Positions 761 through 57,863 are shown, counted from the first letter of the stretch. The stretch is 64,000 nt of DNA from Minisyncoccota bacterium (GCA_041658985.1 JBAZZC010000001.1:65813-129812); one strand, 5' to 3'. Notes: generated by a model not told the origin, from the letters alone. Numbers and translations: made by a program.

Positions 761-950
761 CATATCAAAATTAAAATTTTACTATTTTTGAATATTTGTT
801 ATACTCAAAACAGTTATAGAATCTCGTTGAAGTCGTATCTTTTTTGGAGCATCCGCAGGGAGCAAGCCGGTCTTGTCAACAACCCGAGCACACAGCGAGG
901 GCTCTTGACAAGTTGCGACTGAGGACTAGAACGAACTTTTCGCTGGAAAA

Positions 951-1580
951 GTGAGTGTCTCTAAAAAAGATACGACAAAAAAGAGACTTTATAATCTAAC
1001 AAAAAATTTTATGCTTATACCTACAGTTATTGAAAAATCCCAATTCGGTGAACGGGCATACGACATATACTCGCGACTTTTGCGTGAAAATATTATTTTC
1101 CTGGGCGGACCGATAGATGACGACACAGCAAACATTGTTATTGCTCAAATGCTTTTTTTGCAATCAGAAAATCCTAAAAAAGATATTTCCATTTATATAA
1201 ACTCTCCGGGTGGATACATTCATTCTGGTTTGGCTATTTTGGACACGATGAATATTTTGAAAAATGATATTTCAACAGTCTGTGTTGGTATCGCCGCTTC
1301 AATGGCCTCGGTAATTCTGTCAGCTGGAACAAAAGGCAAAAGATTTATTCTGCCAAACGCAGAAGTGATGATACATCAACCACATGGTGGAACAGAGGGC
1401 CAGGCATCTGATATTGAGATATCGGCAAAACATATTCTAAAACAACGTGACTTGCTTAATAAAATGCTTGCTAAAAATACGGGTAAGCCACTAGCTCAAA
1501 TAGAAAAAGATGTTGACCGTGACTTTTTTATGACGTCTGAAGAGGCAAAACGATATGGAATAGTAGACAAAATCCTATAA
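951..1580 (+). CDS. clpP: ATP-dependent Clp protease proteolytic subunit ClpP (likely true start ATG at 1011)
   Basis: LIPTVIE...[12 protein letters not shown]...IFLGGPIDD...INSPGG...catalytic Ser context [19 protein letters not shown]: classic ClpP motifs. Confidence 0.92.
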
Positions 1581-1792: not shown

Positions 1793-3322
1793 ATGTCATT
1801 AAAAATAGTCCTGCTGTTACTTTCCGTAGCCTCACTTATATCAATAGTGATTGGCTATTACTTGCGTCTCATCGTTTCTCTTGGTCAAAAAGGTTCAATG
1901 GAACTAGACCTCAAGAAAATGATGCTTGAGGCAGAGAAGAAAGAAAAAGCAATCGTTGATGAAGCAGAAAAAAAAGCAGAAGAGTTACTGAAGGTAGCTA
2001 GGTTAGAAATAAAACAAAGAGAAGAAGACAATAAAAAAACAGAAGAAAGACTCATTAAAAAAGATGAGCTTCTTCTAGGTAGACAAACCGAAATAGATAA
2101 AGAGGTAGAAGAGATTAAGAAAAGGATTGAGGAAATAAAGATATTAAGAGACAAGGCGTTAGCTACGACAGAGCAAAAAAAAGAAGAGCTAAGTAAAATC
2201 GCCAAACTCACCCCCGAAGAAGCCAAACAAGAAATTTTAAAAACAGTTGAGAAAGAAAATGAGGAAGATATTTTAGTCCGAATGAAGAAACTGGAAATGG
2301 ACGGCGAGGAAAGATTGGAAGAAAAAGCTAAAGGGATTTTAACTTCTTCAATTCAGCGTCTATCAAATTCAGTTTCATCGGACATGCTTACAACCCATGT
2401 CGTAATTCCAAATGACGAAATAAAAGGAAAAATTATTGGAAAAGAAGGTAGAAACATAAAAGCTTTTGAAAGATGTACTGGGGTTGAGGTTATCGTTGAC
2501 GATACGCCCGGCTCTATTACCATCTCTTCTTTTGACCCCGTCCGTCGCCAAATAGCAAAATCAGCCTTAGAAAAACTTATTGTTGACGGTAGAATTCAAC
2601 CAGCAAAAATTGAGGAAATGGTCCAAAAAGCAGAACAAGAAATCGCTAAAATTATAAAAGAAAAAGGTGAAGAAGCGGTGTATGAAACTGGAGTGTTGGG
2701 CCTCGACCCTCGTATTATTTCTATTCTCGGAAGACTCCACTTCAGAACAAGTTATGGGCAAAATGTTTTAGCCCACTCTATAGAAATGGCCCACATTGCC
2801 GGTATGCTTGCCGAGGAAATAGGTGCAAATGTCCAAGTGGCAAAAGCCGGGGCGTTGGTGCACGACATAGGAAAAGCCCTAGACCATGAGGTTGTTGGTA
2901 CACACATTGAAATTGGTCGAAGAATTCTCCAAAAGTTCGGCGCAGATGAAAATATAATAAAAGCTATGCAAGCTCATCATGAGGAATATCCTTATGAAAC
3001 ACTTGAATCAATGATTGTTCAGTCAGCAGACGCTATATCAGGTGGCCGACCTGGAGCTCGTCGAGACAGTATAGAAAACTATCTAAAACGACTAAAAGAC
3101 CTTGAGGCCGTGGCCAATTCATTTAAGGGTGTTGAGAAATCATATGCCCTACAGGCTGGTCGTGAAATAAGAATTTTTGTCACCCCTAGTGAAACCACGG
3201 ACCTTGAAGCTAAAAAAATGGCTAGAGATATCGCCCTTCGCATAGAAAGTGAACTAAAATATCCGGGTGAAATAAAGGTGACAGTCATTCGCGAGTCTAG
3301 AACCATTGAGTTTGCAAGGTAA
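1793..3322 (+). CDS. rny: ribonuclease Y (alt TTG start at 1784)
   Basis: N-terminal TM helix, long coiled coil, KH domain (IIGKEGRNIKAFE) and HD domain (HSIEMAHIAGMLAEE...LVHDIGKA). Confidence 0.93.
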   Translation: MSLKIVLLLLSVASLISIVIGYYLRLIVSLGQKGSMELDLKKMMLEAEKKEKAIVDEAEKKAEELLKVARLEIKQREEDNKKTEERLIKKDELLLGRQTEIDKEVEEIKKRIEEIKILRDKALATTEQKKEELSKIAKLTPEEAKQEILKTVEKENEEDILVRMKKLEMDGEERLEEKAKGILTSSIQRLSNSVSSDMLTTHVVIPNDEIKGKIIGKEGRNIKAFERCTGVEVIVDDTPGSITISSFDPVRRQIAKSALEKLIVDGRIQPAKIEEMVQKAEQEIAKIIKEKGEEAVYETGVLGLDPRIISILGRLHFRTSYGQNVLAHSIEMAHIAGMLAEEIGANVQVAKAGALVHDIGKALDHEVVGTHIEIGRRILQKFGADENIIKAMQAHHEEYPYETLESMIVQSADAISGGRPGARRDSIENYLKRLKDLEAVANSFKGVEKSYALQAGREIRIFVTPSETTDLEAKKMARDIALRIESELKYPGEIKVTVIRESRTIEFAR

Positions 3323-3339
3323 AAAGTACTCGAAACTTA

Positions 3340-3510
3340 TTTTTTGAGACACGCATAAAGCCCTGCTGGGCTTTTGCTATGCTCGTCAATCAAGAAAACA
3401 ATCTTTCTCAATACTGGCCCTTTCGCAAACTCGGGCTTCGCCCTCAAACAGTGCTTCGGGCTGGCGTACTTCGTCGTTGTTTTCTAATTGACTGTGCAAT
3501 GTCTCAAAAA
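3340..3510. repeat. ~170-bp intergenic repeat element, copy 1 (family also at 11051-11222 and 34254-34424)
   Basis: begins TTTTTGAGACACGCATAAA, core gctatgctcgtcaatcaagaaaacaatct...ttcgcaaactcg...cttcgtcgttgttttctaattgactgtgcaatgtct; ~85-90% identity to other copies by eye; inverted 16-17 bp arms (gtcaatcaagaaaacaa / ttgttttctaattgac). Confidence 0.8.
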
Positions 3511-3691
3511 ACAAGTTTCTCATTCTAACGAGAAAGAAATTTTGTATTTTATACACATCATCTTTAATCCACAGTCAATATGTTGCTTTAAAAAACCGTT
3601 GGTATATACTATTATTCATAGTAGATAGTTTGGACTTTCTGTTCGAAGGTTCCAAAAAATAAAATTATTATTAATTAATTACATTATTAAT

Positions 3692-4535: not shown

Positions 4536-5639
4536 ATGTTACAAAAAATTTTATCAATGTTAGTCTTGGTAACTATTTTAGTTTTTGGCTTTTGGTCAGT
4601 ACAAACTTCGGTCGCCCCAATTCAAAATGAATACAAAGAAGCGGTGGCAACTACAACCCCGACGCTCCGACCTAATACATCGGAGGTCGGGGCTCCGACC
4701 ACAAGCGTCGGAGCAACCAAATCAAAACCCGTTGTAATAACAAAACAGATTGAGATACCTGAAATAATTACGATTCCGACAATAGAACCAGCACCAGATT
4801 TTGAAAAAATTAATGCATACACTCGTCTGGCCACAGTGAACATTCTCTGTCAGACAAAAGCCAGTGACTTCTCCCCTATTTCTGGTACGGGTATGATAAT
4901 AAGCCAGGATGGTTTGATTTTAACCAATGCCCATGTGGCCCAATATTTTTTGTTGCGTGATTTGTATGTGAAAAATTTTATTGAATGTGTTATTCGAACC
5001 GGCAGTCCTGCCTATCCAAAATATCATGCTGAATTAGTTTATATTTCTCCAGCTTGGGTAGAAGACAATAAAGCCGAGATAAAATTACAAAACCCATTAG
5101 GGACCGGTGAAAAAGACTTTGCCTTTTTACGAATTACTGATGCCATTGATGGCTCTAGATTACCTGCTTTTTCTTTTGTCTCAACCGATGTACGAGAAAA
5201 AATAAATGTAAACGAACCAGTTGTTCTTGTTTCCTATCCTGCTGGATTTCTTGGTGGGCTATCAATCATTCAAAACTTAAACATCACAAGTGCTGTTACA
5301 ACGATTCAAGATGTTTTCACTTTCAAAGAAAACACCATTGATGTAATCGCTGTTGGTGGGACGGTTGTATCACAAAAGGGTGCTTCCGGCGGTGCAGTAA
5401 TAGATAAAAACTCGAAACTCTTGGGAATAATCGCCACAAGTTCAGATGGTGCTGTGACAAGTAGTCGTGGACTAAACGCTATCACACTGGCCTATATAAA
5501 CAGAACACTACAAAGTGAGACTGGGTTTACACTCTCTGAATTCTTATCAAAAGATTTGGCTGGTTATGCAAAAACTTTTCAAGAAAACATTGCTCCGGGA
5601 CTTACAAAAATACTTACCGACGAGATAATAAAACAATAA
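4536..5639 (+). CDS. trypsin-like serine protease (S1C/HtrA-like catalytic domain) with N-terminal TM anchor
   Basis: GTGMIISQDGLILTNAHV (His motif), GASGGAV (GxSGG Ser motif), N-terminal hydrophobic helix. Confidence 0.8.
   Translation: MLQKILSMLVLVTILVFGFWSVQTSVAPIQNEYKEAVATTTPTLRPNTSEVGAPTTSVGATKSKPVVITKQIEIPEIITIPTIEPAPDFEKINAYTRLATVNILCQTKASDFSPISGTGMIISQDGLILTNAHVAQYFLLRDLYVKNFIECVIRTGSPAYPKYHAELVYISPAWVEDNKAEIKLQNPLGTGEKDFAFLRITDAIDGSRLPAFSFVSTDVREKINVNEPVVLVSYPAGFLGGLSIIQNLNITSAVTTIQDVFTFKENTIDVIAVGGTVVSQKGASGGAVIDKNSKLLGIIATSSDGAVTSSRGLNAITLAYINRTLQSETGFTLSEFLSKDLAGYAKTFQENIAPGLTKILTDEIIKQ
4665..4713. repeat. in-frame intragenic GC-rich palindromic element (family 2), copy in protease gene
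   Basis: ccccgacgctccgacct...ggaggtcggggctccgacc...gcgtcgg; second copy 46029-46083 ~85% identical; both translate to TPTLRP.T.EVG.PT..VG in host proteins. Confidence 0.75.
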
Positions 5640-7401: not shown

Positions 7402-7709
7402 GCCAGCAACACGCGCTCCCACCAGTTCCGTCCAAAGACACCAAGACGCCGACCCTCCTTCCTGGGGGGCCGGCGTTCACTTTTATATAAAACATTCTAC
7501 CAATTTTAAATTGCTTAGTTTCAAAAAAATTAACTGTCGGGGTGCCGAGTGAAAAGTCGTGAACCGACTTCGCAAGACCTTGAATATTTTGTACTCAAAA
7601 TGTGAAAGGTGTACTCCACGTAAGGAGGCAAACTCGGGCCGCATAAATTTTTACTAAAAAATTTCCACAGAAACATAACATGTTTCTGGAAGTTGTTTTC
7701 AACACTTCG

Positions 7710-7780
7710 TCGGGGTGCCGAGAATCGAACTCGGGCCGCATGATCCCAAATCATGAATACTACCGCTATACTACACCCCG
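7710..7780 (-). tRNA. tRNA-Pro (anticodon TGG)
   Basis: rc reads CGGGGTGTAGTATAGCGGTAGTATTCATGATTTGGGATCATGCGGCCCGAGTTCGATTCTCGGCACCCCGA; anticodon loop TTTGGGA. Confidence 0.8.
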
Positions 7781-7802
7781 ACGAATTTTTTAAAACAACT
7801 TC

Positions 7803-7839
7803 CCCAAATCATGAATACTACCGCTATACTACACCCCGA
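7803..7839 (-). repeat. 37-bp direct duplicate of the 5' half of tRNA-Pro; further tRNA fragments at 7538-7551 (3' end) and 7633-7647 (T-arm)
   Basis: cccaaatcatgaatactaccgctatactacaccccga identical to 7745-7781; gtcggggtgccgag repeated at 7538-7551; aactcgggccgcat repeated at 7633-7646. Confidence 0.8.
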
Positions 7840-9442: not shown

Positions 9443-11048
9443 TTTCTCAATCCCAAAAGAAGTTACACATGTAACACAAACGCTAGAAAAAGCTGGTTTT
9501 GAGGCTTTTCTTGTGGGTGGGTGTGTTAGAGATTTAATAAGACAGCAATTGGAAATTGGTCAGATGGATGCAATTCAAGGCGGAAATAGAAATAGACGAG
9601 GAGGCGTACATGGGTACGGTGACGAGAATATTTCTATTTCCAACGCAGAAGTGCGCCATATGCCCAATTTTCAACCAAAAGATTGGGATGTAGCGACTAA
9701 TGCCAAGCCAGATGAAATTATAGCCTTATTTAGCAAGACTTTTTATGAAAACGAATTTGGTACAGTTGGGGTTGTAAACGAGCAAACAGACAATGAGACA
9801 CTAAAAGTGATTGAGGTAACTCCATATCGCATAGAATCAAAATATTCTGACGGAAGACACCCGGATAGTGTTGTTTTTAGCCAAAAAATTGATGACGACC
9901 TAAAAAGACGTGACTTTACAATCAATTCTCTGGCCTATTCTGTTTCTGCCTCATCAGCAGACGGGTCACAGGGAACAATTGTTGATTTATACGATGGCCA
10001 GAAAGATATACAAAACAAGGTCTTACGCACAGTGGGTGAGCCAGTAGACCGTTTCACAGAGGATGGTCTACGTATTTTGAGAGCAATAAGACTAAGTACA
10101 GAACTTGGATTTGAAATAGACCCAGATACGGAAAAGGCTATATTTGAGAATTCAAACCTCTTGGAAAACATATCCATGGAACGCATTAGGGATGAATTTA
10201 CAAGGATAATTATGTCAGAGAAACCAATGGACGGCCTACTTGCTATGAAAAAGTTGGGAATTATGAAGTATGTAGTTCCAGAACTTGAAGAAACCTATGG
10301 GGTTGAACAAAACCAAGCCCACGCCTACGACGTCTGGGAACATCTACTTCGTTCTGTACAACATTCAGCCGATAAAAATTTTCCTCTGGAAATTCGTTTG
10401 GCGGCTCTATTACACGATATTTCTAAGCCAGAGAATCGTCGTAGAAGCAAGGACAAAGACAAGTGGACTTTCTATGGCCACGAAGTTGTCGGGGCAAAAA
10501 CAGCAAAAAAAATCCTAACAAATCTAAAATATTCAACAAAAATAATTGAAAAAACTGTAATTCTCGTCAGGTGGCACATGTTCTTCTCCGACACAGAGCA
10601 AATTTCGCTCTCTGCGGTCCGTAGAATGATTGTAAATGTTGGAAGCTCTTCCATATGGGATTTGATGAATGTGCGCATCTGCGACCGTATAGGCACTGGT
10701 AGGCCTAAGGAAGACCCATATCGTCTGCGTAAATACCACGCAATGATAGAAGAAGCCCTTCGAGACCCAATTTCTGTTGGAATGTTAAAAATTGATGGTA
10801 AAGGATTAATGGATGTTACACATGTAACACCAGGGCCAAAGATTGGTTTTACTTTACATGCACTTCTTGAAGAGGTTTTAGAAGACCCAAAGAAAAATAC
10901 AGCTGAATATCTAGAAAAAAGGGCCAGTGAGCTTATTTTACTTCCTGAAAATGAATTAAGGGCACTCGGAGAACAAGGAAAGATGTCAAAGGAAGAAGCA
11001 GATGAGGAGGAAATCAAAAAGATAAGAGGAAAACACTACGTAAAATAG
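9435..11048 (+). CDS. cca: CCA-adding tRNA nucleotidyltransferase with HD domain; contains ~40-aa in-frame insertion
   Basis: GFEAFLVGGCVRDL...DWDVATNAKPDEI (pol-beta NTase head), HD motif HLLRSVQH...LLHDISKP; insertion between VRDLIR and PKDWD. Confidence 0.88.
   Translation: MNNFSIPKEVTHVTQTLEKAGFEAFLVGGCVRDLIRQQLEIGQMDAIQGGNRNRRGGVHGYGDENISISNAEVRHMPNFQPKDWDVATNAKPDEIIALFSKTFYENEFGTVGVVNEQTDNETLKVIEVTPYRIESKYSDGRHPDSVVFSQKIDDDLKRRDFTINSLAYSVSASSADGSQGTIVDLYDGQKDIQNKVLRTVGEPVDRFTEDGLRILRAIRLSTELGFEIDPDTEKAIFENSNLLENISMERIRDEFTRIIMSEKPMDGLLAMKKLGIMKYVVPELEETYGVEQNQAHAYDVWEHLLRSVQHSADKNFPLEIRLAALLHDISKPENRRRSKDKDKWTFYGHEVVGAKTAKKILTNLKYSTKIIEKTVILVRWHMFFSDTEQISLSAVRRMIVNVGSSSIWDLMNVRICDRIGTGRPKEDPYRLRKYHAMIEEALRDPISVGMLKIDGKGLMDVTHVTPGPKIGFTLHALLEEVLEDPKKNTAEYLEKRASELILLPENELRALGEQGKMSKEEADEEEIKKIRGKHYVK
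9545..9676. repeat. ~130-bp palindromic element inserted in-frame in cca
   Basis: terminal inverted repeats gcaattggaaattgg / cccaattttcaacc and inner 13-14 bp inverted repeat ggaaatagaaatag / tatttctatttcc; encodes QQLEIGQMDAIQGGNRNRRGGVHGYGDENISISNAEVRHMPNFQ absent from canonical CCA enzymes. Confidence 0.65.
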
Positions 11049-11050
11049 CA

Positions 11051-11222
11051 TTTTTGAGACACGTATAAATCGTTGGTACAATTTTACTATGCTCGTCAAT
11101 CAAGAAAACAATCTTCCTCGACACTGGCACTTTCGCAAACTCGTCGCTTCGCTCCTCAAACAATGCTTCGTGCTGGCGTGCCTCGTCGTTGTTTTCTAAT
11201 TGACTGTGCAATGTCTTAAAAA
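11051..11222. repeat. ~170-bp intergenic repeat element, copy 2
   Basis: TTTTTGAGACACGTATAAATCGTTGGTAC...gctcgtcaatcaagaaaacaatcttcc...ttgttttctaattgactgtgcaatgtcttaaaaa; antisense small ORF (MHSQLENNDE...) shared with copy 3. Confidence 0.8.
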
Positions 11223-11755
11223 TGCTATTTTACGTAGTAATAAAGAAAGGTGGAAAATAAAAAACCGCCCAATAACCAGGGACCATTGCTACTCAATAGT
11301 CACTAATGATTGGGCGGTTGGGGAGAAGAGTCATCCAGCTATCCAAATAAGCCAGTTATAATAACGAAGCTCAAAATATAGTAGATAGTTGTAGGTTCGA
11401 TTAAGGCTGGACCTACCGAAAACCAGATGGTCTTCTAAAGAGAGGAGTCGCGAACTCCAAAAAAGAAATGCATTTCAAAACAAGGAACAAATTTTTGTAG
11501 AAATTCCGTCCGACGAGATATCGGACATCCAATCTACGTCTGATATAAGTTTATATTTTTTTAAAAGACATGTAAAGGACATTCCTAATCAAAAGGTGGA
11601 TAACTCCAAAACAAAATATTTTTAAAGTCCAATGTCAAGTTAATTGTGCCTTATTTTTCTAAAGAAAAAGCCGGGTCGTAAAACTCGGCTACCCTTGACC
11701 TCCAGGGTGAGGAGCTCTCTTTTGTGGAGAAGAGCAGGAATCCATGAGTACGATA

Positions 11756-13423: not shown

Positions 13424-16400
13424 TTACTTAATGTCCAGACCGTTATCTTTGATAATCTGTTGAATCTCTGGATCTTGAAGAATGTCTCTATGAATTTTAA
13501 ACGTATTAAGTATTTTCTCAACAGCAGGAATCTCTTTGCGAGAAAGCCGTATGATTATTCCCGCTCTGCCTGCACTCTTAACCTCTGGACTCTCTATAAC
13601 CTCTTCTGAAACAGAGAATTCGTCCACCATTCTCTTTGCCTCTCTAACATGACCCTGGGAAAGTGCACCTACTATTCCCTTTTTGGTGGCCTCTTTAATT
13701 TCTGGGGTTTGTAAAAATTCTTTTGGAACTTTAAACATCTCGAGTATTTTCACTGCATTTTTTATGTGTCCAGCGGATATATATGCAACAACTCGACGAG
13801 TTACATATTTTTTAATTTCCGGGTCTTGTATAGCTTCCTCAGAGACTCCAAGTCGGGTGACAACATCTTCGATTCTTTCATCATTCCCTTCTGACGGATA
13901 CTGACTAATCGCTTTTTGAACTGCTTTGTGAACTGATTCTTGTGGAATTTTAAACCTTTCAACCATTGTACCTACAAAAACCAAATCATACCATTTAAAT
14001 GAAAGTTTGGTATCCATCACGGTTACTGCTTCTCTTTGAATTTCTGTGTCTTGAAAGATTTCGTCTGAAATACCCAGCTTATCAACTGCTACAGATATCC
14101 AACCCATATCAACATGAAGATTGCTGATGATAAGCTCTTTAATTATTTTATCAGTATCTTCTTTCGAAACACCAAATGATTTTACTACGTCCTGACCAGT
14201 AGGAAATTCTTTTTGAGCAAAAAACAACTTAATGAGTTCTCCAGCAGCCCCTTGAACCTTGGGACCGCGCATAAATTCTTCTGAAACTTTGAACATATCG
14301 GCTAGTTTTCTAGCACTAACCGGGCTTTTTCTAGTGAGAGACAAACGCTGAATAATCTCTTCCTGAACCGCTTCCTGCACTTCTGGACTCTGTAACGTTT
14401 CTTCAGAAATCTTAATTACACTGACTAATAATTTAATGCTCTCATCAAAATCGTGTACAGAAGATAAGCGAGAATCAACATTTAGCTGCCTAATAATCCA
14501 ACTCTTGACTGATTCCTGTATCTCGGGACTCTGCAACACTTCTTGCGAGACCTTAAACTGTTTTACTGTTTTTATAGCTTGATCAATATTACCACTAGAT
14601 AAATCCTTAATTATCTTCCTCTTGGCAACTTCTTGAATTTCCGGACTACTTAAAATACTGTCTGGCAACTGAAAATTATCAATTAATATTTGGAGTTTGA
14701 TGTTATTTCCCGAGGAATCGCATGAAATAATGGCATTTTTGACTATTTCATAAACAACACTCTCTTGAACTTTAAATACTCTTATTACCTCCTTTGCCCT
14801 ATCGAAAGATACCTCTGATAAACTCTGGCTAATGACCTTTCTAGCATGTTCCTGAATTTGATTATTTTGAAGTATCACATCTGAAACTTCCATATCACGA
14901 AGCAATGCTACGGTTTTGACACGAAGCTCAGAAGAAGAACAGCCCAAGATATATTTTTTAATTATGGCGTCCTTGGCCTCCTGAGGAACCCTAAATGCCT
15001 TTATTAGTTCTTTGGCAACAAGGAATTTATCAAAAAGTAGATTTTTTGTGATTTTATCCCTAACAGCTTCTTGAATCTTTGGACTATGTAACACTTCATC
15101 TGAAACATCTAGATTACTAAAAATACTTTCGAAGGTACTAAAACTAGTCTCTGAAGAAAGTTTATCTAAAATAAGTGTATTAATGGCTTCTTGAATTTTC
15201 GGATTTTGAGCAACATTCATTCCAAATAGTTTTATCACCTGCCCAGCTTCTACCACACGACCATTTCGAATGAGGTTAAAAGCACAATAAGTAGTAGCTT
15301 CTTGGATTTCTGGGCTTTGTAAAATATCATTTGAAACTTTAAACTTTTCAAATATAAAACTCACATTGTCTACAAGCCACCGGTCAGACAACATCTTTAA
15401 AACAAATGGTTTGACAGCTTCTTGAACTACTGGGTCTTGCAAGATTTCATCTGAAATATTATACAAAACAATTATATTTTTAATTTCAAAACAATTACTG
15501 TATGATAACATATCTATCAATCCTAATTTAACGATTTTTTGAAATTCAGAAGTCTGAAAGAACTCTATTGGAACAGTAAAACGCTTTTGTATTTCAATAG
15601 CCCTAGAATCACGACTTTTTGTAAAACTGTGTATAATCGCTCGCTTAGCAACTTCTTGAACTATCTCTTCTGAAAGATTTAAATTTTTTATTTTTCTAAT
15701 AGCACTATCTGTTTCACCCTCAGCCAATAAATCGACAATTTCATCAATTCTTTTTTTGTTTTCTATAAAAAACTCCTCAAGTTCCCTCCTTTTCTTTATT
15801 TTTTCGGCAATGTTTGGAAATGATTCTTCTAGTTTAAATAGCTTTACAAGAAAAATCTCTCTCTCACCCTCTTTTTCATTTGATAATTGATCTTTAATGT
15901 GCCTTTCAATCATGCTTCTGCAGTAATTCTTAAAACCAGCTCCTGATTCCTTGGACAAGCTAAGTTTGTGCATGAGAGAAGACACTAAACCCTCTTTTTC
16001 ACCCTCACAAAGCTTAGAAACAATTGAAAAAAATTCCTCATATTGACCTGACATTTTTTTACCAGATTCTAAAAATGTTCTGAGTGAAAAAAAGACCGTC
16101 TGACGAGCATCATCATCTCCCAGATCTTTCAAATATCTCGTATCACCCTCACTTGCAAAATATGATGCAAGAGCTATTAATTCTGCTTCAGATAGGTTTT
16201 CTTTTTTTGTTTTATTTATACTAAGTGCTTTAGAAATTTTTGAAAAAGCAGGATTTTTTTGTCTACTTTTTAATTTTATAAATGGAAATAATTTATCCAA
16301 AAATACGTCCAACCCTCCTAAATAATCACAAGCAATTACAATTCTTTCACTATCCTGATTAGTAATTGATATATCTAATATATTATTACTTGTAAGTAGA

Positions 16401-17524
16401 GAAGAGATTGTTTCAAGTTCAGTCTTATTATTAGACAACACAGCGTTTTCTATATTTCTTGCCAAGATTTTACCAAAGTCTACATCATTTAAATATCCTT
16501 TTTTATGCAAATCTATCGCAGATTTAAAATGATGTACAGCTTCACCAGAAGATTTTTTTACATCTTCAAAGTATGAGAGAATTTTACTAATTGCACTTTT
16601 TAATCTTATTTGAAGTCTTACCCGAAAAGATTCTCCTTGAGAATTACCACCAAACTTATCGTATGTTTGAATAATTTTTCCAACCTCTTCTATTTCTTTA
16701 CAGACAGATTCAGGATCCCAGTCATTACCTCCTAATAAAACAGACTCCCTAGCAAATACTGTCATTATTTTTTTGAGATTAGATAAATCTTTTTCTGTTT
16801 CTTCTCTTTCTTTTTCTAATCCTGCCTCTTGACCACTTCTTATTTCTTCAGTTTTTTTCTCTTCTATCCACACATCTTCTAATAAAGGAGATAACCTCAC
16901 CAATACCAATTTTCGCCCAGATATTTGGTTTGTTATCTCATATAATTCAGACGCATGAACAACCGACTCAGACGCACCTTGGGGAATATCCAATCCACTC
17001 AATTGAAGTGAGGTGATTTCTTCTGGAGAAATTTGTCCATCCTGAAGAATTTTTATTAATTCCTCATTTGAATGAATAAGATGTTCTAACCTTTCTTCTA
17101 ATACCTTGCGAGAAATTTGGACTATTTTTTTTGCTTCTTTTGGATCACTAAGTTTTTTAGTAATGTTGTCTATTTCTTTTTTTATCTCTTGTTGAACACT
17201 TTGCCAAATAGAGACATCTTTAGAGATATTTTCCTCAATTTCTTTTTTCTTTCCTTCTAACTCCGCAACTTCTCTTGTAATTGTTTCATAAAGAGCCTTG
17301 GCCTTTTCTACTGCAGGAGCAGTGGCTTCAGTGATTTTATTCGCCTCGGCAAAAAGACCACGAAGCTCGTCTGCTTGTCTACCAATTTGAGTAGCAAGAT
17401 AATTAATATTCTCTATATCAGTTGCTGGTTTTGATTCCGTGTCTGGATCTGGCACAAGGCTTAAAGGTGTGTTTGTGGGTAATGTTGGTTGTTCACTATT
17501 TGGATCGGTTTTCATCTTTATCAT
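13424..17524 (-). CDS. giant (1366 aa) repeat protein: N-terminal coiled coil plus >=13 tandem ~38-aa repeats ending LQ(S/D)PEIQEA
   Basis: recurring ...FKVS.E.LQSPEIQEAV... units through C-terminal ~900 aa; start 16 nt after xth stop, so likely co-transcribed. Confidence 0.75.
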   Translation of the reverse strand: MIKMKTDPNSEQPTLPTNTPLSLVPDPDTESKPATDIENINYLATQIGRQADELRGLFAEANKITEATAPAVEKAKALYETITREVAELEGKKKEIEENISKDVSIWQSVQQEIKKEIDNITKKLSDPKEAKKIVQISRKVLEERLEHLIHSNEELIKILQDGQISPEEITSLQLSGLDIPQGASESVVHASELYEITNQISGRKLVLVRLSPLLEDVWIEEKKTEEIRSGQEAGLEKEREETEKDLSNLKKIMTVFARESVLLGGNDWDPESVCKEIEEVGKIIQTYDKFGGNSQGESFRVRLQIRLKSAISKILSYFEDVKKSSGEAVHHFKSAIDLHKKGYLNDVDFGKILARNIENAVLSNNKTELETISSLLTSNNILDISITNQDSERIVIACDYLGGLDVFLDKLFPFIKLKSRQKNPAFSKISKALSINKTKKENLSEAELIALASYFASEGDTRYLKDLGDDDARQTVFFSLRTFLESGKKMSGQYEEFFSIVSKLCEGEKEGLVSSLMHKLSLSKESGAGFKNYCRSMIERHIKDQLSNEKEGEREIFLVKLFKLEESFPNIAEKIKKRRELEEFFIENKKRIDEIVDLLAEGETDSAIRKIKNLNLSEEIVQEVAKRAIIHSFTKSRDSRAIEIQKRFTVPIEFFQTSEFQKIVKLGLIDMLSYSNCFEIKNIIVLYNISDEILQDPVVQEAVKPFVLKMLSDRWLVDNVSFIFEKFKVSNDILQSPEIQEATTYCAFNLIRNGRVVEAGQVIKLFGMNVAQNPKIQEAINTLILDKLSSETSFSTFESIFSNLDVSDEVLHSPKIQEAVRDKITKNLLFDKFLVAKELIKAFRVPQEAKDAIIKKYILGCSSSELRVKTVALLRDMEVSDVILQNNQIQEHARKVISQSLSEVSFDRAKEVIRVFKVQESVVYEIVKNAIISCDSSGNNIKLQILIDNFQLPDSILSSPEIQEVAKRKIIKDLSSGNIDQAIKTVKQFKVSQEVLQSPEIQESVKSWIIRQLNVDSRLSSVHDFDESIKLLVSVIKISEETLQSPEVQEAVQEEIIQRLSLTRKSPVSARKLADMFKVSEEFMRGPKVQGAAGELIKLFFAQKEFPTGQDVVKSFGVSKEDTDKIIKELIISNLHVDMGWISVAVDKLGISDEIFQDTEIQREAVTVMDTKLSFKWYDLVFVGTMVERFKIPQESVHKAVQKAISQYPSEGNDERIEDVVTRLGVSEEAIQDPEIKKYVTRRVVAYISAGHIKNAVKILEMFKVPKEFLQTPEIKEATKKGIVGALSQGHVREAKRMVDEFSVSEEVIESPEVKSAGRAGIIIRLSRKEIPAVEKILNTFKIHRDILQDPEIQQIIKDNGLDIK

Positions 17525-20351: not shown

Positions 20352-21268
20352 TTAAGGCTTATTGTGAAACCTCTTATGTATGTCTCTTAAATGCTTATCC
20401 GTCACATGAGTATATATTTGCGTAGTGATAATACTTGAATGCCCAAGTAGAGCCTGGACTGAACGAATATCTGCACCATTGCCGAGTAAATCTGTGGCAA
20501 AGCAGTGTCTTAGCATGTGTGGAGTAACTCTTTTTGAAATACCGGCCTTAATTGCGTACTGTTTTACAATTCTTTCAACAGTCCTTTTGTGAAGGGGATT
20601 GGCTTGTTTGTTAACCACCTCTTTACCCACATGAACAAAAAGGCCGTCACTCATATCTTTGCGTGCTTTTAGATATTCTTTCACACTTTTTTTTGCTTCA
20701 TCGGAAATGAAAACCACACGCACTTTTCCGCCTTTTCCCCGAACAGATAATTCGTCGGAGTTTAAGTTGATATCCGAGGTTAAGGAACAAAGCTCCGAAA
20801 CACGAAGTCCGGTCGAAAACAATAGCTCCAAAATAGCCTTGTCACGCAAACTTTTTATGTCTGTGCCGTTTGGGGCATTGAGAAGTCGCTGTAACTCTAT
20901 ATGAGTAATGAGGTCAAGTGTTCGCTCTCCTGTTTTAGCAAGTTCAATCCGCTCAGAGGGAAGAGTTTTGATTTCTTGTCGTGCAAGATACTTGAGAAAA
21001 GCACGAATGGCGATAAGATAATAATTCTGAGTTTTTTTGGATAAGGTATCCTGCTTGGTTTTGTCGTGTCCTGTCAGTTGTCTGTTTAACCAAAGACGAA
21101 ATTGGCGGACTGTTTCGTCTTAATCTCTGTTGGGTTGTCTGTTTTTATAAAACTCAAAAAACGAGTCAGATAATGGTCATAATTTTCTACGGTTTTCATA
21201 GAACGACCACGCTCTATCTCTATATATTCCAAAAACTGCTGTTTGAGTTGCTTTAGACCTTGTGCCAT
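20352..21268 (-). pseudogene. XerC/XerD-type tyrosine recombinase, frameshifted (N-terminal core-binding part 21086-21268, catalytic domain 20352-20849)
   Basis: N-term LEYIEIERGRSMKTVENYDHYLTRFLSF (core-binding); C-term ...LGHSSIITTQIYTHV with conserved R, H-R-H and Tyr; middle ~80 aa not in either frame. Confidence 0.7.
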
Positions 21269-21577
21269 TTATCCGCACACCAATTTTGGCATTGTGTTTT
21301 TGTTGCTTGTTAAGTATTTATCACAAGGTGCTATTCTAATAGCTTAAAATTAAACCGCAGACATTGTGAAAACACGATGCAACTATGCCAAATTTGGTGT
21401 TCGGATTAATTATAACACGAACCAGTGTCGCACAATATAGATTGTTCAACTTAAAAAGTCGAATAATCTACGAATATTTTGCAACATTATCATGTCGCAA
21501 AATATTCGATCCAAACTATATGAAGAAGGGGTCCCACGAGAGGACCCCTTGAAACCCAAACAACACGTTCCCAGAAC

Positions 21578-22809: not shown

Positions 22810-23000
22810 GCCTCCTCGTTAATAATTTCTTTATCATCATATCTCTCGCTGGGCACGGATATTTTTCTGCTGAAAAATTCCTCGTGCTTTTACGAAGTGA
22901 TAACATCACTTCTCACCTCTCGTCTCGCAAGGCCCGTCTCGAGACATGATTCAACGAAATTATTAACTCGTTGTTAGTAGTGCAATGTCTTGAAAAAGTT
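22810..23000. repeat. degenerate copy of the ~170-bp intergenic repeat family
   Basis: 3' end cgttgttagtagtgcaatgtcttgaaaaag matches family terminus; rest diverged. Confidence 0.35.
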
Positions 23001-23096
23001 GTGATTCGGAGAGACGGCAATACTTGTGGTATAATTTTACTGTCGATTTTTTTATATTTTAGTTTTATTATTATTTTTTAATATTTATATACATTT

Positions 23097-31900: not shown

Positions 31901-32630
31901 GGTTCCTTAAAAACAATTTTCCGAAACACCTGCCTCCTTCTTGGTTCACTAATATTAAGTGATTCAAGAAGGGGGTAGGTATGCTACGGGCAGATACCAG
32001 AACCTCCATAATGGTGTGATTTGATAGGTACACCTGTAAGAGGTGTAAGTAACAGATGATCCACATGGCATAGTGGGTAACGGGGTAAGGCTCTCCGTGT
32101 CATCGTGTTACCACATCAAATGGGTATAGTGCCACGCCAAAACTGGCGGGGGACACTATATCAACTGGAGTACTCCAGACTGCCCAATTAGAGCTTCGGA
32201 AGGTTGTAGCTACCAAACCTTGCCCTGAGGAACCAATGTTCCTCGGGGTTCCTTAAAAGCAAATCACGTTGTGGTTTCCTTTTAAGGGAAGAGAGGAACA
32301 CGAGGATAAACAAACACCTAAGTTGACCTCCTCTTGTATGTGAATCTCTTCCCGTCATGCCGTTGTCTAGGTCAGTGCAGAGACCAGAGGACAAGAAGGG
32401 TGAAATACTCCGCCTTTAAGTGATAAACCCTCCACTGGCCCAAAAGGTCAGAAGGCGGATGGTGAGTTAAGTGACTCATCATTGGGGATTAAAATACGGG
32501 TGGCCACCATGTTCTACAAAACAAGGAGGTCGGCCAAGCCCGCAAAAAACACCCCGAACTGCACACGTTCTTTGGAGCACAGGCTCCACGATTAAGGCTT
32601 CCAAGCTACCATCGTGGAGCCTTTTTCGTA
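31846..32630 (+). ncRNA. candidate ~785-nt structured non-coding RNA with hammerhead-processed 5' end and hairpin terminator
   Basis: no convincing ORF on either strand; G+C-rich with many local hairpins (e.g. gaggaacc-aatg-ttcctc); bounded by ribozyme cleavage site and terminator 32578-32630. Confidence 0.3.
32578..32630 (+). terminator. rho-independent terminator, copy 1 of an identical 52-bp repeat
   Basis: ggctccacgat-N18-atcgtggagcc + TTTTTCGTA; identical copy 32951-33003. Confidence 0.75.
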
Positions 32631-32736
32631 TCTAAAATGTGTCCCCAGGAGAACTTGACTTTTACCACCTGTCTGTGTTATAATACAAGTAGGAGGTGGG
32701 GCACTACTAACAAAACCCACCGAAGGGAGTTAACAA

Positions 32737-32937: not shown

Positions 32938-32950
32938 TGTTCCTTGGGGC

Positions 32951-33003
32951 AACAGGCTCCACGATTAAGGCTTCCAAGCTACCATCGTGGAGCCTTTTTC
33001 GTA
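32951..33003 (+). terminator. rho-independent terminator, copy 2 of 52-bp repeat
   Basis: identical to 32579-32630. Confidence 0.75.
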
Positions 33004-33010
33004 TAAAAAT

Positions 33011-34036: not shown

Positions 34037-34253
34037 ACGCCAACTCTGGGGCTTGGTGCTTTTAAGACCGGACCCAAACTGTGGATCCTGTTGTGAGCTT
34101 TTAATAAGCTAAAAATTAAAATAAATTCTGCTTTTCTGTAATAAAATACGGCTCTACTAGACCATATCTTAAAACTTTAGTTCGGTACATAATCTAGTAT
34201 ATACCCTTTAATCCTTGGGTCAATCTAAGTTATAAACAGCCATCTCATCACTG

Positions 34254-34424
34254 TTTTTTCAAGACACGTATAAATCGTTGGTACGATTTTACTATGCTCG
34301 TCAATCAAGAAAACAATCTTCCTCAGTACTGGCCCTTTCGCAAACTCGCTTCGCTCAAACAGTGCTTCGGGCTGGCGTACTTCGTCGTTGTTTTCTAATT
34401 GACTGTGCAATGTCTTGAAAAAAC
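34254..34424. repeat. ~170-bp intergenic repeat element, copy 3
   Basis: TTTTTTCAAGACACGTATAAATCGTTGGTACG...ttgttttctaattgactgtgcaatgtcttgaaaaa. Confidence 0.8.
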
Positions 34425-34471
34425 AGTGATTTCGCCTCAAACAACAGATCTTGCCATGATATAATCACTAG

Positions 34472-38953: not shown

Positions 38954-39049
38954 TTTAAAACACCTGTCCTGTTAGAGTTAAAGCTTGTTTAAATAACGCA
39001 AAAAATATTTTTAAAATTAATTGTGAAGAACTCTAATAGGATGATATAA

Positions 39050-39192
39050 TTAATCCGCACACTAAATTTAGCATCGTTGCCTTGTGTTGTTACAACACAT
39101 AAGTTCAATCACTAAGTAATTGATACACTAGTTTGTATTAAACACGTAACAGGCAACAAAAAACACAATGCTAAAATTAGTGTGCGGATAAA
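39050..39192. promoter_or_regulatory. large inverted repeat (24-bp arms TAATCCGCACACTAAATTTAGCAT) with nested palindromes upstream of the T4SS-like cluster
   Basis: taatccgcacactaaatttagcat (39050-39073) vs atgctaaaattagtgtgcggataa (39168-39191); internal tgtgttg-tta-caacaca. Confidence 0.4.
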
Positions 39193-40007
39193 TGCCAAAC
39201 AACAGGATTTTATTTGTTTTAATTATTTGTTTCGGAGTTGTTGCTTCCGTTTATCTACTTGCAAGAAATTCCGCTAGCCCACAGACAATCGGGGACACAA
39301 CCGATGTTTCTGTAAACCCCTACATCAATCTAGATAAAAACACAAACAATGATTGGAAAAAAATTCTAGTAAACCTTGATTCAAGTAATAGCACCACTAC
39401 CATCCTGACAAATGAAGACCCAGGTGTATTTAATGAAACAACACTAACAGCACAAATGTCTCGCGATTTTCTTTCCCAGTATTTGTCGGCGATAAAAAAT
39501 GGACCAGTCACCCCAGAAGAGGCAGCAAAAATCGCAGAAACCACTCTCTTAATACCAGAATACACAAAAGGTGTTCGAGTAAAATATAACATCAAGAATC
39601 TGCATGTAATCAATAATACCAATACAAACACAATAGAAGTGTATGGAAATACGCTAAATCAAAGCCTGAAAGACAAATCTTCTCAGGTAAAAGAAAACCC
39701 AATAGAAATATTTAATAATGCCATAACCAGTGCAAGTGAAACAAAATTGGCTAAACTAGACCAAATTATTTTTCTAAACAAAAGTCTCCTAACTGACCTG
39801 CTCACAATGAATGTGCCTAAAAGTGCTATTGAGGTACATCTTGCCCTTCTTAATGTTACTAGTAGTCTTTTATCAGACCTAGAAGCAATGAGGTTGGTTT
39901 TTATAGACCCTGTTGCGGGCTTGATTGGAATTAGTCAATATCAAACAGATACTTTTTTGTTAAAAACAGCACTAACAAACATGAACACATACCTAATGCA
40001 AAACTAA
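39192..40007 (+). CDS. membrane-anchored hypothetical protein (first gene of T4SS-like cluster)
   Basis: N-terminal TM ILFVLIICFGVVASVYLL; Asn/Thr-rich. Confidence 0.5.
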   Translation: MPNNRILFVLIICFGVVASVYLLARNSASPQTIGDTTDVSVNPYINLDKNTNNDWKKILVNLDSSNSTTTILTNEDPGVFNETTLTAQMSRDFLSQYLSAIKNGPVTPEEAAKIAETTLLIPEYTKGVRVKYNIKNLHVINNTNTNTIEVYGNTLNQSLKDKSSQVKENPIEIFNNAITSASETKLAKLDQIIFLNKSLLTDLLTMNVPKSAIEVHLALLNVTSSLLSDLEAMRLVFIDPVAGLIGISQYQTDTFLLKTALTNMNTYLMQN

Positions 40008-45355: not shown

Positions 45356-46159
45356 ATGAATGACCAGGAAATAGACAATTTTATAAATACTTTATCCAAA
45401 CCCGTGAAAGAGTTTATCTTTGCTGGTGTCTGGGAAGAAAGAACAGCAGAGATTGCAAAAAAATATTCACTAAATGATACACAGGTAAATGATTTAGTAG
45501 ATACTGTGCTTTTTGTCCTTACTGGCCTGGAAAGTCCCGAAGCCCTTTTAGAAACAATTATTGCAGAGCTGGGTATCTCGAGACTCCTAGCTGAACAAAT
45601 AATGGATGACCTGGAAATAAGAGTTTTTGAATACGCCGTCAAAAGCATAGAGAAGAAAACGGACAGTAGCCAGCAGTTAGCATCTAGTAGCCAGGAAGAA
45701 ATTCAAAGTCAAAACAACCAAAACAAAACACCAGAAAAAGATATTCCAGAAATACGACCGAAAAATTTACCAGAAATAGAAGCAAACATTTTACCAATGA
45801 CTGAGCCCGGAGAAAAGGTGCGTATCGTGGAACAACCAATTAACACTGTCAAACCAGAAACAAAACCCCAGGAAACCCCAGGGGAAGCCCCTGGGCAAAC
45901 TTCGCGACCTTCTGAAATTATTTACAAAGCTGTGCCTGAACCCATTCCTGTACCACAATACACAGAAGCACCGGTTGAAAATAAAGTAATGCCTGCCCTA
46001 GAGACTGAAGCTAAACCATCTGAGCCAACCCCGACGCTCCGACCTAGTACGTTGGAGGTCGGGGAGCCGACTGAAAACGTCGGCTCAAAACCACCAGAAC
46101 CAGTACCACCTCCTGTAAAAAAATATGCTGTAGACCCATACCGAGAACCACTGGAATAA
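45356..46159 (+). CDS. hypothetical acidic/Pro-rich protein, carries family-2 palindromic insert
   Basis: ORF; PTPTLRPSTLEVGEPTENVGS segment encoded by palindromic element. Confidence 0.5.
   Translation: MNDQEIDNFINTLSKPVKEFIFAGVWEERTAEIAKKYSLNDTQVNDLVDTVLFVLTGLESPEALLETIIAELGISRLLAEQIMDDLEIRVFEYAVKSIEKKTDSSQQLASSSQEEIQSQNNQNKTPEKDIPEIRPKNLPEIEANILPMTEPGEKVRIVEQPINTVKPETKPQETPGEAPGQTSRPSEIIYKAVPEPIPVPQYTEAPVENKVMPALETEAKPSEPTPTLRPSTLEVGEPTENVGSKPPEPVPPPVKKYAVDPYREPLE
46029..46083. repeat. in-frame intragenic palindromic element (family 2), copy 2
   Basis: ccccgacgctccgacctagtacgttggaggtcggggagccgactgaaaacgtcgg. Confidence 0.75.
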
Positions 46160-53863: not shown

Positions 53864-53870
53864 GAAGATG

Positions 53871-53960
53871 GTTATAAAGTTTATAAGGTAAAAAGTTTAT
53901 AAAGTTTAGGGTTGTTTGTGTTTATTTTATGAACTTTATAGACTTTATGAACTTTCAACT
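53871..53960. repeat. AT-rich inverted-repeat module R1 (arms of tandem 9-bp units AGTYTATAAAG / CTTTATRRACT)
   Basis: gttataaagtttataaggtaaaaagtttataaagttt ... ttttatgaactttatagactttatgaactttc; related modules at 54325-54413, 54561-54647, 57515-57597. Confidence 0.7.
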
Positions 53961-54307
53961 TATGATAACACACCAGACATAGAAAGTAACTCTGTAACAT
54001 CTTTCTCTAGTGTAGAAAAGGTGAGAAGTTCTGGTGTTTTTTTAAAAGAAAAAAGACAAAAGTAACCTGGTTTTATTTTTTTTAGATTTTTTAAAATTAT
54101 AGAATATCCTCTTCTTCTGTATTTGTTTCTGTCTACTGCTTTTTGACACACCTTCTTTGACACAGAAAAGGAAAACTTGCTGTCTGAAGCCCCGCCAGAG
54201 GAAATTGGCGCCACACACAAAACTAAGTTGGGGGAGTGAAATCGCCTCCCATTTTTAAGAATATTAGCAAATTCTTTTCTTAATATTCTCCTTCTTTTTG
54301 GGAGCAT
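53960..54307 (-). CDS. rnpA: ribonuclease P protein component
   Basis: basic 115-aa protein RRRILRKEFANILKNGRRFHSPNLVLCV...; between rpmH and yidC. Confidence 0.8.
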   Translation of the reverse strand: MLPKRRRILRKEFANILKNGRRFHSPNLVLCVAPISSGGASDSKFSFSVSKKVCQKAVDRNKYRRRGYSIILKNLKKIKPGYFCLFSFKKTPELLTFSTLEKDVTELLSMSGVLS

Positions 54308-54324
54308 AATTGAGTCAAAAGTTA

Positions 54325-54413
54325 AAAGTTTATAAAGTCTATAAAGAAAATCATTAAATTAGGTCATTTTTGACTACATTTTCAACCTTATGGACTTTAT
54401 GGACTTTCGACTT
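54325..54413. repeat. AT-rich inverted-repeat module R2
   Basis: aaaagtttataaagtctataaag ... ccttatggactttatggactttcgactt. Confidence 0.7.
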
Positions 54414-54415
54414 GT

Positions 54416-54553
54416 CTAGACTGTACTCAGTTTAGCTCTTCCTTTTCGTCTTCGTCTCAAAATGGTATTTCTGCCAGTTTTTGACTTATTACGCACCAAA
54501 AATCCATGTGATTTGGCTCGTTTTCTCTTTTTTGGTTGATATGTTTTTGACAT
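54416..54553 (-). CDS. rpmH: 50S ribosomal protein L34
   Basis: rc translation [45 protein letters not shown] (45 aa) matches L34; not in the >=60-aa ORF track. Confidence 0.9.
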
Positions 54554-54560
54554 AATGAAT

Positions 54561-54647
54561 AGTTATAAAGTTTATAAAGTTAAAAGTCTATAAAGTCAAG
54601 GCTGTTTTGTACTTACTTTACGAACTTTATGGACTTTATGGACTTTC
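54561..54647. repeat. AT-rich inverted-repeat module R3 (in rpmH-dnaA divergent region)
   Basis: agttataaagtttataaagttaaaagtctataaagtc ... ctttacgaactttatggactttatggactttc. Confidence 0.7.
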
Positions 54648-54739
54648 TACTGTTGTACACAACTTATACACATATTATTAACACATTGGCCGTTTTTTAA
54701 CAAGTACTATATTTCCTTATTACCTATATAATAAGAAAC

Positions 54740-57514: not shown

Positions 57515-57597
57515 AAAAGTTCATAAAGTTATAAAGTCCATAAAGTAGATACAGAAGCATTTACTTTATAAACTTTACAAACTTTCAACTTTATAAC
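57515..57597. repeat. AT-rich inverted-repeat module R4 (after dnaN)
   Basis: aaaagttcataaagttataaagtccataaagt ... ctttataaactttacaaactttcaactttataac. Confidence 0.7.
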
Positions 57598-57605
57598 TCA
57601 ATTTT

Positions 57606-57863
57606 ATGTTTAATATAAAAAATTATTTAGAGAAATTTTCTAGGAGGCTATATTCTTCCGAAGAACAAAAGAAAAAAATCCTAGAAATTATAGAAAAGCA
57701 TACCCAAATAATACTTTCTTTAGAAGAGATGGAAATAAAAAATTATATAATCCATTTAAAAACCTCTCCAGCTGTTTTAAATAAAATTTTTATATATAAA
57801 AGTAAAATACTGGAAGACGTCACCCTACAAGTTAAAGATTTAAAAATTATTGATATTAAATAG
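57606..57863 (+). CDS. small hypothetical protein (85 aa); position after dnaN suggests a possible DUF721/DciA-like protein but not supported by motif
   Basis: clean ORF; synteny only. Confidence 0.35.
   Translation: MFNIKNYLEKFSRRLYSSEEQKKKILEIIEKHTQIILSLEEMEIKNYIIHLKTSPAVLNKIFIYKSKILEDVTLQVKDLKIIDIK

Follow-up and report, generated by a model that had tools for sequence, protein, structure and literature searches.

A previously undescribed family of ~190-base hairpin rods, commonly found just behind stop codons, in Paceibacteria/Patescibacteria

A sequence of about 170 bp lying directly downstream of the rny gene recurs between genes elsewhere in the 64-kb stretch of DNA analysed here (the window; G+C content 38%), which raises the question of whether it is a mobile palindrome, an RNA, a DNA site or a protein gene. 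The preliminary description had placed copies at 3340–3510, 11051–11222 and 34254–34424, with a degenerate fourth after rpsO, and proposed a structured RNA family or a MITE. We found that the repeat belongs to a previously undescribed family of ~190-base hairpin rods in Paceibacteria/Patescibacteria, which is real, is neither chance, a protein gene nor a known RNA family, and is of the bacterial interspersed structured-repeat kind. The neighbouring genes named earlier (rny, cca, pcrA and rpsO) were confirmed by Pfam, which shows RNase Y, the CCA-adding enzyme, a UvrD/PcrA helicase and S15. Paceibacteria are tiny groundwater bacteria of the candidate phyla radiation (CPR), and the NCBI entry of the window PcrA is assigned to ‘Candidatus Paceibacterota bacterium’. 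The closest relatives of the window PcrA (80% identity) include Candidatus Zambryskibacteria, and the window rpsO protein was also found on groundwater metagenome contigs.

The three well-conserved copies were far above chance and formed one family: profile searches with nhmmer gave E-values of 1e-63 to 1e-65, and a covariance model built from 25 diverse members scored them at 187–207 bits. Their sites were as first reported, but their lengths were not, because each copy has an extra outer closing stem that extends it beyond the earlier bounds. The 16–17-bp inner inverted arms described earlier were found on reading the sequence, and the claimed end motifs were seen both there and in the alignment. 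The parts of the three copies are as follows.

3329–3522, plus strand: canonical copy 1, directly 3′ of the rny stop codon (TAA, 3320–3322); covariance-model score 201.8 bits
3332–3351, plus strand: 5′ arm of the copy 1 closing stem, GAAACTTATTTTTTGAGACA, pairing with 3500–3519 (19/20 complementary)
3357–3374, plus strand: side hairpin P2 of copy 1, AAAGCCC-TGCT-GGGCTTT, followed by T-rich sequence; terminator-like
3385–3401, plus strand: 5′ arm of the copy 1 inner stem, GTCAATCAAGAAAACAA, pairing with 3477–3492
3423–3458, plus strand: invariant core of copy 1, consisting of TCGCAAACTCG, a variable hairpin and CTCAAACAGTGCTTCG
3477–3492, plus strand: 3′ arm of the copy 1 inner stem, TTGTTTTCTAATTGAC, partner of 3385–3401
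3500–3519, plus strand: 3′ arm of the copy 1 closing stem, TGTCTCAAAAAACAAGTTTC
11035–11238, plus strand: canonical copy 2; 187.5 bits, z = −9.2
11133–11170, plus strand: invariant core of copy 2
34244–34434, plus strand: canonical copy 3, in the spacer that separates pcrA from the divergently oriented M23 peptidase gene; 206.6 bits, z = −8.4
34338–34369, plus strand: invariant core of copy 3

Copy 1 runs from CTC (3329–3331) to TCA (3520–3522) and folds with a predicted energy of −70.6 kcal/mol (RNAfold; z = −8.4 against shuffled sequences), while its P2 hairpin has an energy of −10.4 kcal/mol and all 7 P2 pairs covary across the family. The closing stem of copy 2 reaches 27 bp (11035–11061 with 11212–11238, 26/27 complementary; ACTACGTAAAATAGCATTTTTGAGACA and its complement) and begins within the last codons of cca, whose TAG stop codon occupies 11046–11048. 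Copy 3 is bounded by CTC (34244–34246) and TTCG (34431–34434), and its closing stem, formed by 34247–34266 and 34411–34430, is complementary at 20/20 positions (ATCACTGTTTTTTCAAGACA and its complement). By the covariance model, the window contains 5 members of the family in 64 kb, which together make up ~1% of its length.

All members form a rod composed of a copy-specific closing stem of 16–27 bp, a side hairpin, an inner stem and a core of internal loops. A three-way junction bears the small, terminator-like side hairpin (AAA-stem-UUUU), and the inner stem is AU-rich and conserved. The core follows the consensus YUCGCAAACUCG-(variable hairpin)-CUCAAACAGUGCUUCG, with loop nucleotides invariant in 25/25 members and an enclosed hairpin of 5, 7, 8, 9, 11, 13, 15, 16, 17 or 25 nt. 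Covariation, the check suggested earlier for the structure, revealed a conserved fold with compensatory change: RNAalifold derived 49 pairs from the 25-sequence alignment, 33 of which showed compensatory double changes, and standard pairs filled 92.6% of the cells compared to 76.1% in column shuffles. The covariation score of 0.444, against a shuffle mean of 0.153, was reached by 0/500 shuffles and fell to 0.06–0.10 when the pairing partners were slid by 1–3 columns. The single-sequence z-scores of copies 1–3 ranged from −8.4 to −9.2 relative to shuffles.

The P2 hairpin takes the form AAA-(4–7 bp)-UUUU(R)CUAU, with alternative 4-bp stems that include GCCC/GGGC, TCGT/ACGA, TCGC/GCGA, GTTC/GAAC and CCCC/GGGG; a consensus scan did not call it. 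Wobble pairing was rare throughout the rod (1376 Watson-Crick, 22 G·U and 23 A·C stem cells) and, being equal overall for the two kinds of mismatch, gives no choice of strand, the closing stem having 15 A·C against 5 G·U and the inner helices leaning to G·U. A wobble content this low (~1.5%) resembles that of DNA palindromes more than that of classical structured RNAs and counts against an RNA reading of the element. The plus strand is favoured as the putative transcribed strand on three indirect grounds: the orientation and spacing of the element relative to stop codons, the T-run of a distant subfamily and the P2 hairpin reading AAA-stem-UUUU(R)CUAU.

A wider search for copies revealed that the family is not restricted to the window: scans of public collections recovered ~40 further members, mostly from Patescibacteria (MAGs, and groundwater and other metagenomes). 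A 20-mer from the 3′ end led to 3 more copies in 2 Patescibacteria MAGs, and a core-only pattern (TCGCAAACTCG N4–34 CTCAAACANTGCTTCG) to 35 metagenome loci, all of which fold alike. The covariance model recovers all 25 of its members at 135–207 bits and a distant subfamily (L028, L042/L045 and L053) at 50–60 bits. The distant subfamily keeps the core with a different sequence in every helix, has the same spacing of about 5 nt from the stop codon and carries a T-run after the closing stem (L028/L042/L053). It probably lies outside the CPR, since its upstream genes, read from translations rather than by search, appear to be flgE, a GGDEF-domain gene and an aminotransferase. Size variants include members with ~90 nt inserted (L046/L055) and ‘mini’ forms (~100 nt) reduced to the closing stem and the side hairpin. 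No description of the family was found in full-text literature searches. The shortened forms are listed below.

L017:6133–6229, mini form (covariance model)
L023:1660–1759, mini form (covariance model)
L047:5867–5967, mini form (covariance model)
L059:11941–12042, mini form (covariance model)
L059:1134–1272, mid-size form lacking the core, inverted relative to rpsO

The degenerate fourth copy reported after rpsO was found to be real, but it is a composite of a rod and an orphan 3′ end instead of a single diverged copy. By sequence, only the last ~28 nt of this region match the family (nhmmer model positions 165–192, E = 0.04); by structure, 22832–23009 scores 28.8 bits with the covariance model (E about 1e-5). 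The two parts, together with a fifth member of the window, are the following.

22815–22970, plus strand: related rod that lacks the canonical core, immediately 3′ of rpsO; RNAfold z = −6.4
22978–23007, plus strand: orphan canonical 3′ end, ..GTGCAATGTCTTGAAAAAGTTGTGAT followed by TCG, with no matching 5′ arm
827–981, minus strand: fifth, diverged member; 18.4 bits, E = 0.004 with the covariance-model filters off; seen as an inverted pair in a repeat search

The rpsO rod is laid out as CTC, GTTAATAATTTC (22818–22829), its interior, GAAATTATTAAC (22956–22967) and TCG, and has the ACGGATA of the family as well as the P2 module; locus L030 has a canonical element at the equivalent site after rpsO. 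The fifth member combines a closing stem (GTCGTATCTTTTTTAGAGACA / TGCTCCAAAAAAGATACGAC) and a P2-like hairpin (CTTTTCCAGCGAAAAG) with a different apex. A regular-expression search of the window for further base modules returned only these known members and a coincidental match in tRNA-related sequence at 7637.

The rod is bracketed by CTC at the 5′ side (13/25 exact) and TCG at the 3′ side (9/25 exact) in about half of the main family, and the mini forms and the rpsO rod carry the same brackets. Terminal inverted repeats of 16–27 bp, near-perfect, are present in every copy, and their sequences differ by copy and by sub-lineage. Stem sub-lineages are common to different loci and genomes: AAYCATAAC (AACCATAAC / AATCATTAC / AATTATAAGC), CACATC, GTTAWT (GTTAAT / GTTATT) and ATCACT, the last shared by copy 3 and L018. 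Because the sub-lineages are shared between loci and bounded by the conserved CTC and TCG, the closing stem belongs to the element and evolves fast; at the rny site, orthologous elements (copy 1 and L046) differ by compensated changes on both arms at 2 stem positions and by changes on one arm at 3. Insertion of the element into a pre-existing terminator hairpin of the host was considered and rejected on the grounds of the shared stem sub-lineages, the CTC/TCG bounds and the lack of a palindrome at an element-less cca ortholog. A look for target-site duplications, proposed in the preliminary description, found no copy-variable duplication, only a constant shared ‘TC’, and the copies that lack the CTC/TCG motif have no direct repeat.

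Copies without the CTC/TCG brackets tend toward the longest stems (22–27 bp), and copy 2 explains how such a stem may arise. Its 5′ arm includes the last four codons and the stop codon of cca (..CAC TAC GTA AAA TAG). The cca ortholog of L046, 74% identical and without the element, ends in KHWVK and a stop, so the 5′ arm of copy 2 is native to cca, and its 3′ arm must therefore be the inverted copy of host sequence. Copy 2 is thus a clear example of a hairpin stem rebuilt from host coding sequence. The simplest explanation is that the palindromes may occasionally extend outward via intrastrand template switching during replication, for which quasi-palindrome mutagenesis provides an established basis.

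In the usual layout the stop codon of the upstream gene is followed by 6 nt, CTC and the first paired base, placing the stem ~9 nt after the stop; the covariance-model start lies 4–5 nt past the stop codon in the majority of copies. The upstream gene is co-oriented with the element in 24/30 cases, a proportion that is partly geometric, and the cases were therefore split by gene arrangement. Between co-directional genes the element has the orientation of the genes in 12 cases and the opposite one in 2. In convergent regions its 5′ end lies within 5 nt of a stop codon or overlaps one in 8/8 cases, with the other gene 57–520 nt from the element; in several of these regions, such as those of copy 2 and L025, an A-tract and a GC-rich hairpin between the element and that gene look like the other gene's own terminator. 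Only 3 or 4 members, including copy 3, lie between divergent genes. The upstream genes comprise rny, cca, dnaE (3 genomes), rpsA (2) and rpsO by Pfam, and, as read from translations rather than by search, rpsI, trigger factor (2), a release factor, RNase J, NusA, PBP2 and CtpA. Some downstream genes begin only 14–40 nt beyond the element and would need a promoter in that gap if termination at P2 were efficient. Terminator activity is doubtful for the Paceibacteria copies, since their closing stem is followed by no U-tract and their P2 is short.

Comparison with related genomes shows that copies are gained or lost over time, as seen from element-less sites in relatives and from the orphan 3′ end that follows rpsO. 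The element is missing elsewhere from two of the three window sites: L046 has none after cca, and L056/L058 have none next to pcrA. After cca, L046 (6975–7105) has a different palindrome of ~5 ACGAAT units followed by inverted copies. The M23–pcrA spacers of L056/L057 and L058 match the window up to ..GTTATAAACAGC and diverge exactly at the 5′ edge of copy 3. The covariance model found no copy in L056/L057 (Zambryskibacteria) or L058, and no canonical copy is present in the 16–22 kb available there; L059 carries two variants of the element. At the cca and pcrA sites there was no clean empty site that would show an insertion junction, the spacer being diverged or occupied by a different palindrome. 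In contrast to this turnover, the dnaE, rny and rpsO positions are filled in several genomes (3, 2 and 2, respectively).

Taken together, these elements constitute a dispersed, structure-constrained, non-coding family whose unpaired core is deeply conserved and whose placement is strictly related to the preceding stop codon. The conserved structure, the dispersal and the element-less sites agree with the initial proposal of a structured RNA family or MITE, but a classic MITE does not fit, and a free-standing RNA gene is the less likely kind of RNA. We give a probability of roughly 0.5 to a dispersed, non-autonomous element acting as a structured 3′-UTR RNA of the upstream gene. The element would form part of the transcript of the preceding gene, as its 3′ untranslated tail. 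A terminating ribosome covers some distance of mRNA past the stop codon, and the rod, beginning ~9 nt past the stop, would start about where this cover ends, so that translation should not open it. The rod could then cap and delimit the 3′ end of the mRNA, by blocking 3′ exonucleases and/or by weak termination, and its invariant internal loops might be presented to a conserved trans-acting factor. Copies arise and vanish over time, with the closing stem mostly travelling with the element and sometimes being rebuilt from host sequence, as in copy 2, whose 3′ arm is an inverted cca end putatively made by template switching. Two members count against a 3′-UTR role: copy 3 has no co-oriented upstream gene, and L059:1134–1272 is opposite to the rpsO orientation. 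A bolder and more tentative proposal, possible though not one we would favour, is that the ~40-nt core (YUCGCAAACUCG ... CUCAAACAGUGCUUCG) marks a new widespread class of functional RNA, protein-recruiting or catalytic, located at mRNA 3′ ends behind the terminating ribosome and also spreading as a mobile rod, in which case it would be more than one further selfish palindrome; the core stays constant although all the helices around it covary, and flagellated, GGDEF-encoding, probably non-CPR bacteria have it too.

Among the alternatives, which we rank by confidence as a selfish palindrome, then an independent small-RNA gene, then a DNA-level site, the leading one regards the element as selfish DNA and nothing more, a MITE-like palindrome with a hairpin that is of use solely in DNA form, for transposition or replication, post-stop sites being the only harmless landing places in a compact genome. 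We consider this somewhat doubtful. Its multi-copy dispersal with mini, insertion and orphan derivatives, the element-less sites in relatives, the 16–27-bp terminal inverted repeats, the near-perfect Watson-Crick pairing with G·U equal to A·C, the conserved CTC...TCG termini (where ‘TC’ on both sides could be a fixed 2-bp duplication) and the other rod-like repeat families in the window all speak for this reading, but no target-site duplication is variable, and conservation is highest in the unpaired interior and lowest in the terminal repeats, the reverse of MITEs. The core is also kept in distant, probably non-CPR bacteria with wholly different stems, orientation and spacing follow the stop codon of the upstream gene, and the same sites are filled in several species. 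No IS-family transposase was noticed among the annotated genes near the elements, the only recombinase seen being a tyrosine integrase that adjoins no copy. Less probable, and in our estimate unlikely, is a set of independent small-RNA genes with their own promoters, in which the stop codon of the upstream gene would often share bases with a −10 box, and the product would be a free, trans-acting rod RNA of ~190 nt. Hexamers resembling a −10 box (TAAAAT, TAAAGT and TATAAA) do occur in many copies ~7–12 nt ahead of the first paired base, this base is usually a purine, copy 3, which has no co-oriented upstream gene, has TATAAA 11–16 nt upstream of its stem, and the invariant loops would suit a trans-acting ribonucleoprotein. 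However, no −35 box is conserved, only ~4/9 copies that follow a TAA stop have the diagnostic last T of the hexamer, which is the background level, the Paceibacteria copies have no terminator after the closing stem, and a housekeeping small RNA does not usually occur in multiple near-identical copies. A 3′-UTR element is more likely than a free-standing RNA gene because most copies begin ~9 nt after a co-oriented stop codon.

Still less probable is a DNA-level site for protein binding or recombination, folded as a single strand or a cruciform in the manner of attC, Xer or origin sites. The pairing is kept equally for both strands, the window contains a tyrosine-recombinase gene, and, by analogy, conserved unpaired bases in a covarying hairpin could be read as attC-like, attC sites having conserved unpaired bases within a hairpin. 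Nevertheless, the elements follow scattered housekeeping genes and not cassette arrays, the recombinase adjoins no copy, attC sites are conserved at the ends and variable in the middle, opposite to the element, and a fixed stop-codon spacing has no DNA-level rationale. A small antisense protein gene (..HSQLENNDE..KIVFLIDEHSK..) is refuted by the indel pattern. As described earlier, the antisense frame is open in two copies, which we identified as 2 and 3, and nine database ORFs resemble it; copy 1 is frameshifted, and the hairpin inside the frame varies in length by steps that are not multiples of three. Only these 9 weak, short ‘hypothetical’ ORFs with no Pfam domain turned up among the 5.8 billion proteins searched, the start codon is not conserved, as had been noted, and the substitutions preserve base pairs and not codons, contrary to the pattern that a small protein would leave.

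Elements of the ERIC, Correia and BOX kinds are thought to act on flanking transcripts, REPs are mobilised by RAYT transposases, and the genomes of CPR/Patescibacteria are tiny, with hardly any non-coding DNA and few known non-coding RNAs. The closest known systems are repeats of the ERIC, Correia (NEMIS), BOX and SPRITE types (PMC3184786); ERIC, Correia and BOX are MITE-like, bacterial interspersed palindromic repeats (PMC3184786, PMC2229807). Like them, the present elements are imperfect palindromes of 100–200 nt, multi-copy and intergenic, which form long hairpins, have deleted and expanded variants and contain no transposase. Unlike them, their unpaired apical core is the most conserved part and their terminal repeats are copy-specific, they have no variable target-site duplication, a strict orientation and a ~9-nt spacing from the stop codon, and they show no sequence similarity to such families (no Rfam match and no match in a phage collection). 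The AAA-stem-UUUU of P2 and the U-tract after the closing stem of the distant subfamily recall the terminator-resembling, SPRITE-like dispersed repeats, but the element is ~2 times as long, contains a three-way junction and forms a large conserved rod, and the main stem of the Paceibacteria copies has no U-tract. With REP/BIME sequences the element shares the location at gene 3′ ends, in convergent and co-directional regions, and a putative role as a 3′ exonuclease barrier; REPs are GC-rich hairpins of 20–40 nt, whereas the rod is ~190 nt, AU-rich and has conserved internal loops. The attC sites of integrons (e.g., Vibrio VCRs) are also structured repeats found a few nt after the preceding stop codon, co-oriented with it and conserved in structure above sequence. 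In contrast to attC, the element has no cassette array, adjacent integrase or obvious R″/R′ core sites, it flanks essential housekeeping genes, and its pattern of conservation is inverted, with a conserved centre and variable ends. The element has been retained behind core genes (RNase Y, DnaE, S1, S15, the CCA-adding enzyme, trigger factor, RNase J and NusA), and this retention, together with the deeply conserved unpaired core, makes it a good candidate for an unrecognised layer of mRNA 3′-end control in CPR/Patescibacteria. The covariance model and the core pattern enable annotation of the family and prevent spurious ‘hypothetical protein’ calls.

Several specific identities were examined and rejected. 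Rfam, whose families include 6S, ribozymes, OLE, raiA and retron msr, returned no match at gathering thresholds for the window and 10 related loci, and only three chance-level matches for copy 1 at E ≤ 10. The 6S RNA, rod-like and of similar size, was rejected on the absence of an Rfam match, the multiple copies and the position after stop codons; a retron msr/msd, on the absence of a reverse transcriptase noticed among the annotated neighbour genes; and an integron attC, on the absence of a cassette array and an adjacent integrase. A phage origin was rejected as well, the core pattern having no match in viral contigs and blastn no match in the phage collection. An own promoter was likewise set aside: the −10-like boxes are inseparable from the stop-codon and A-rich context, and the good σ70-like site of copy 2 is not conserved in copy 1. 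That site (11054–11082; TTGAGA, 17 nt, TGGTACAAT, i.e. TTGAGA-17-TACAAT) is made from the closing stem and P2. The conserved 3′ arm contains TTGACT, which could be a candidate outward-facing −35 box.

Other features were observed in the window. A second, unrelated rod-like family of ~155 nt (TGCCATTTATCCGCACACCAATTTTGGCAT...) is present at 21263–21417 and 39042–39197 in opposite orientations; each copy folds back on itself, and the two, 17.6 kb apart, are 83–92% alike. A non-coding segment of ~200 nt that lies upstream of the M23/LysM peptidase gene (34037–34240) is highly conserved in L056 and L058 (PcrA 80–81% identical), unlike the rest of the M23–pcrA spacer, and has no Rfam match at E ≤ 1; the peptidase gene may have here a leader or an RNA not described before. 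An exact repeat of 37 nt from the tRNA at 7710–7780 (minus strand) lies at 7803–7839, and 7536–7640 contains two ends of the same tRNA sequence ~80 nt apart; these arrangements (7536–7839) could represent an integration-site remnant or an interrupted tRNA gene. Direct and inverted repeats of ATAAAGTTTATAAAG / GACTTTATGGACTTT units at 53868–54660 and 57556–57609 are iteron-like and might mark an origin or the control region of a mobile element. Two hairpins with T-runs (AGGCTCCACGAT...ATCGTGGAGCCTTTTT; 32570–32636 and 32943–33009), 91% identical and 373 nt apart, look like duplicated terminators. A 79-nt repeat (4654–4732 and 46026–46104, 77% alike) contains nested GC-rich palindromes (CCCCGACGCTCCGACC...GGTCGGGG). 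Finally, an ORF of 1366 aa with no Pfam match (13424–17524, minus strand) contains at least 9 diverged copies of a 46-nt internal repeat, with a period of about 39 aa.
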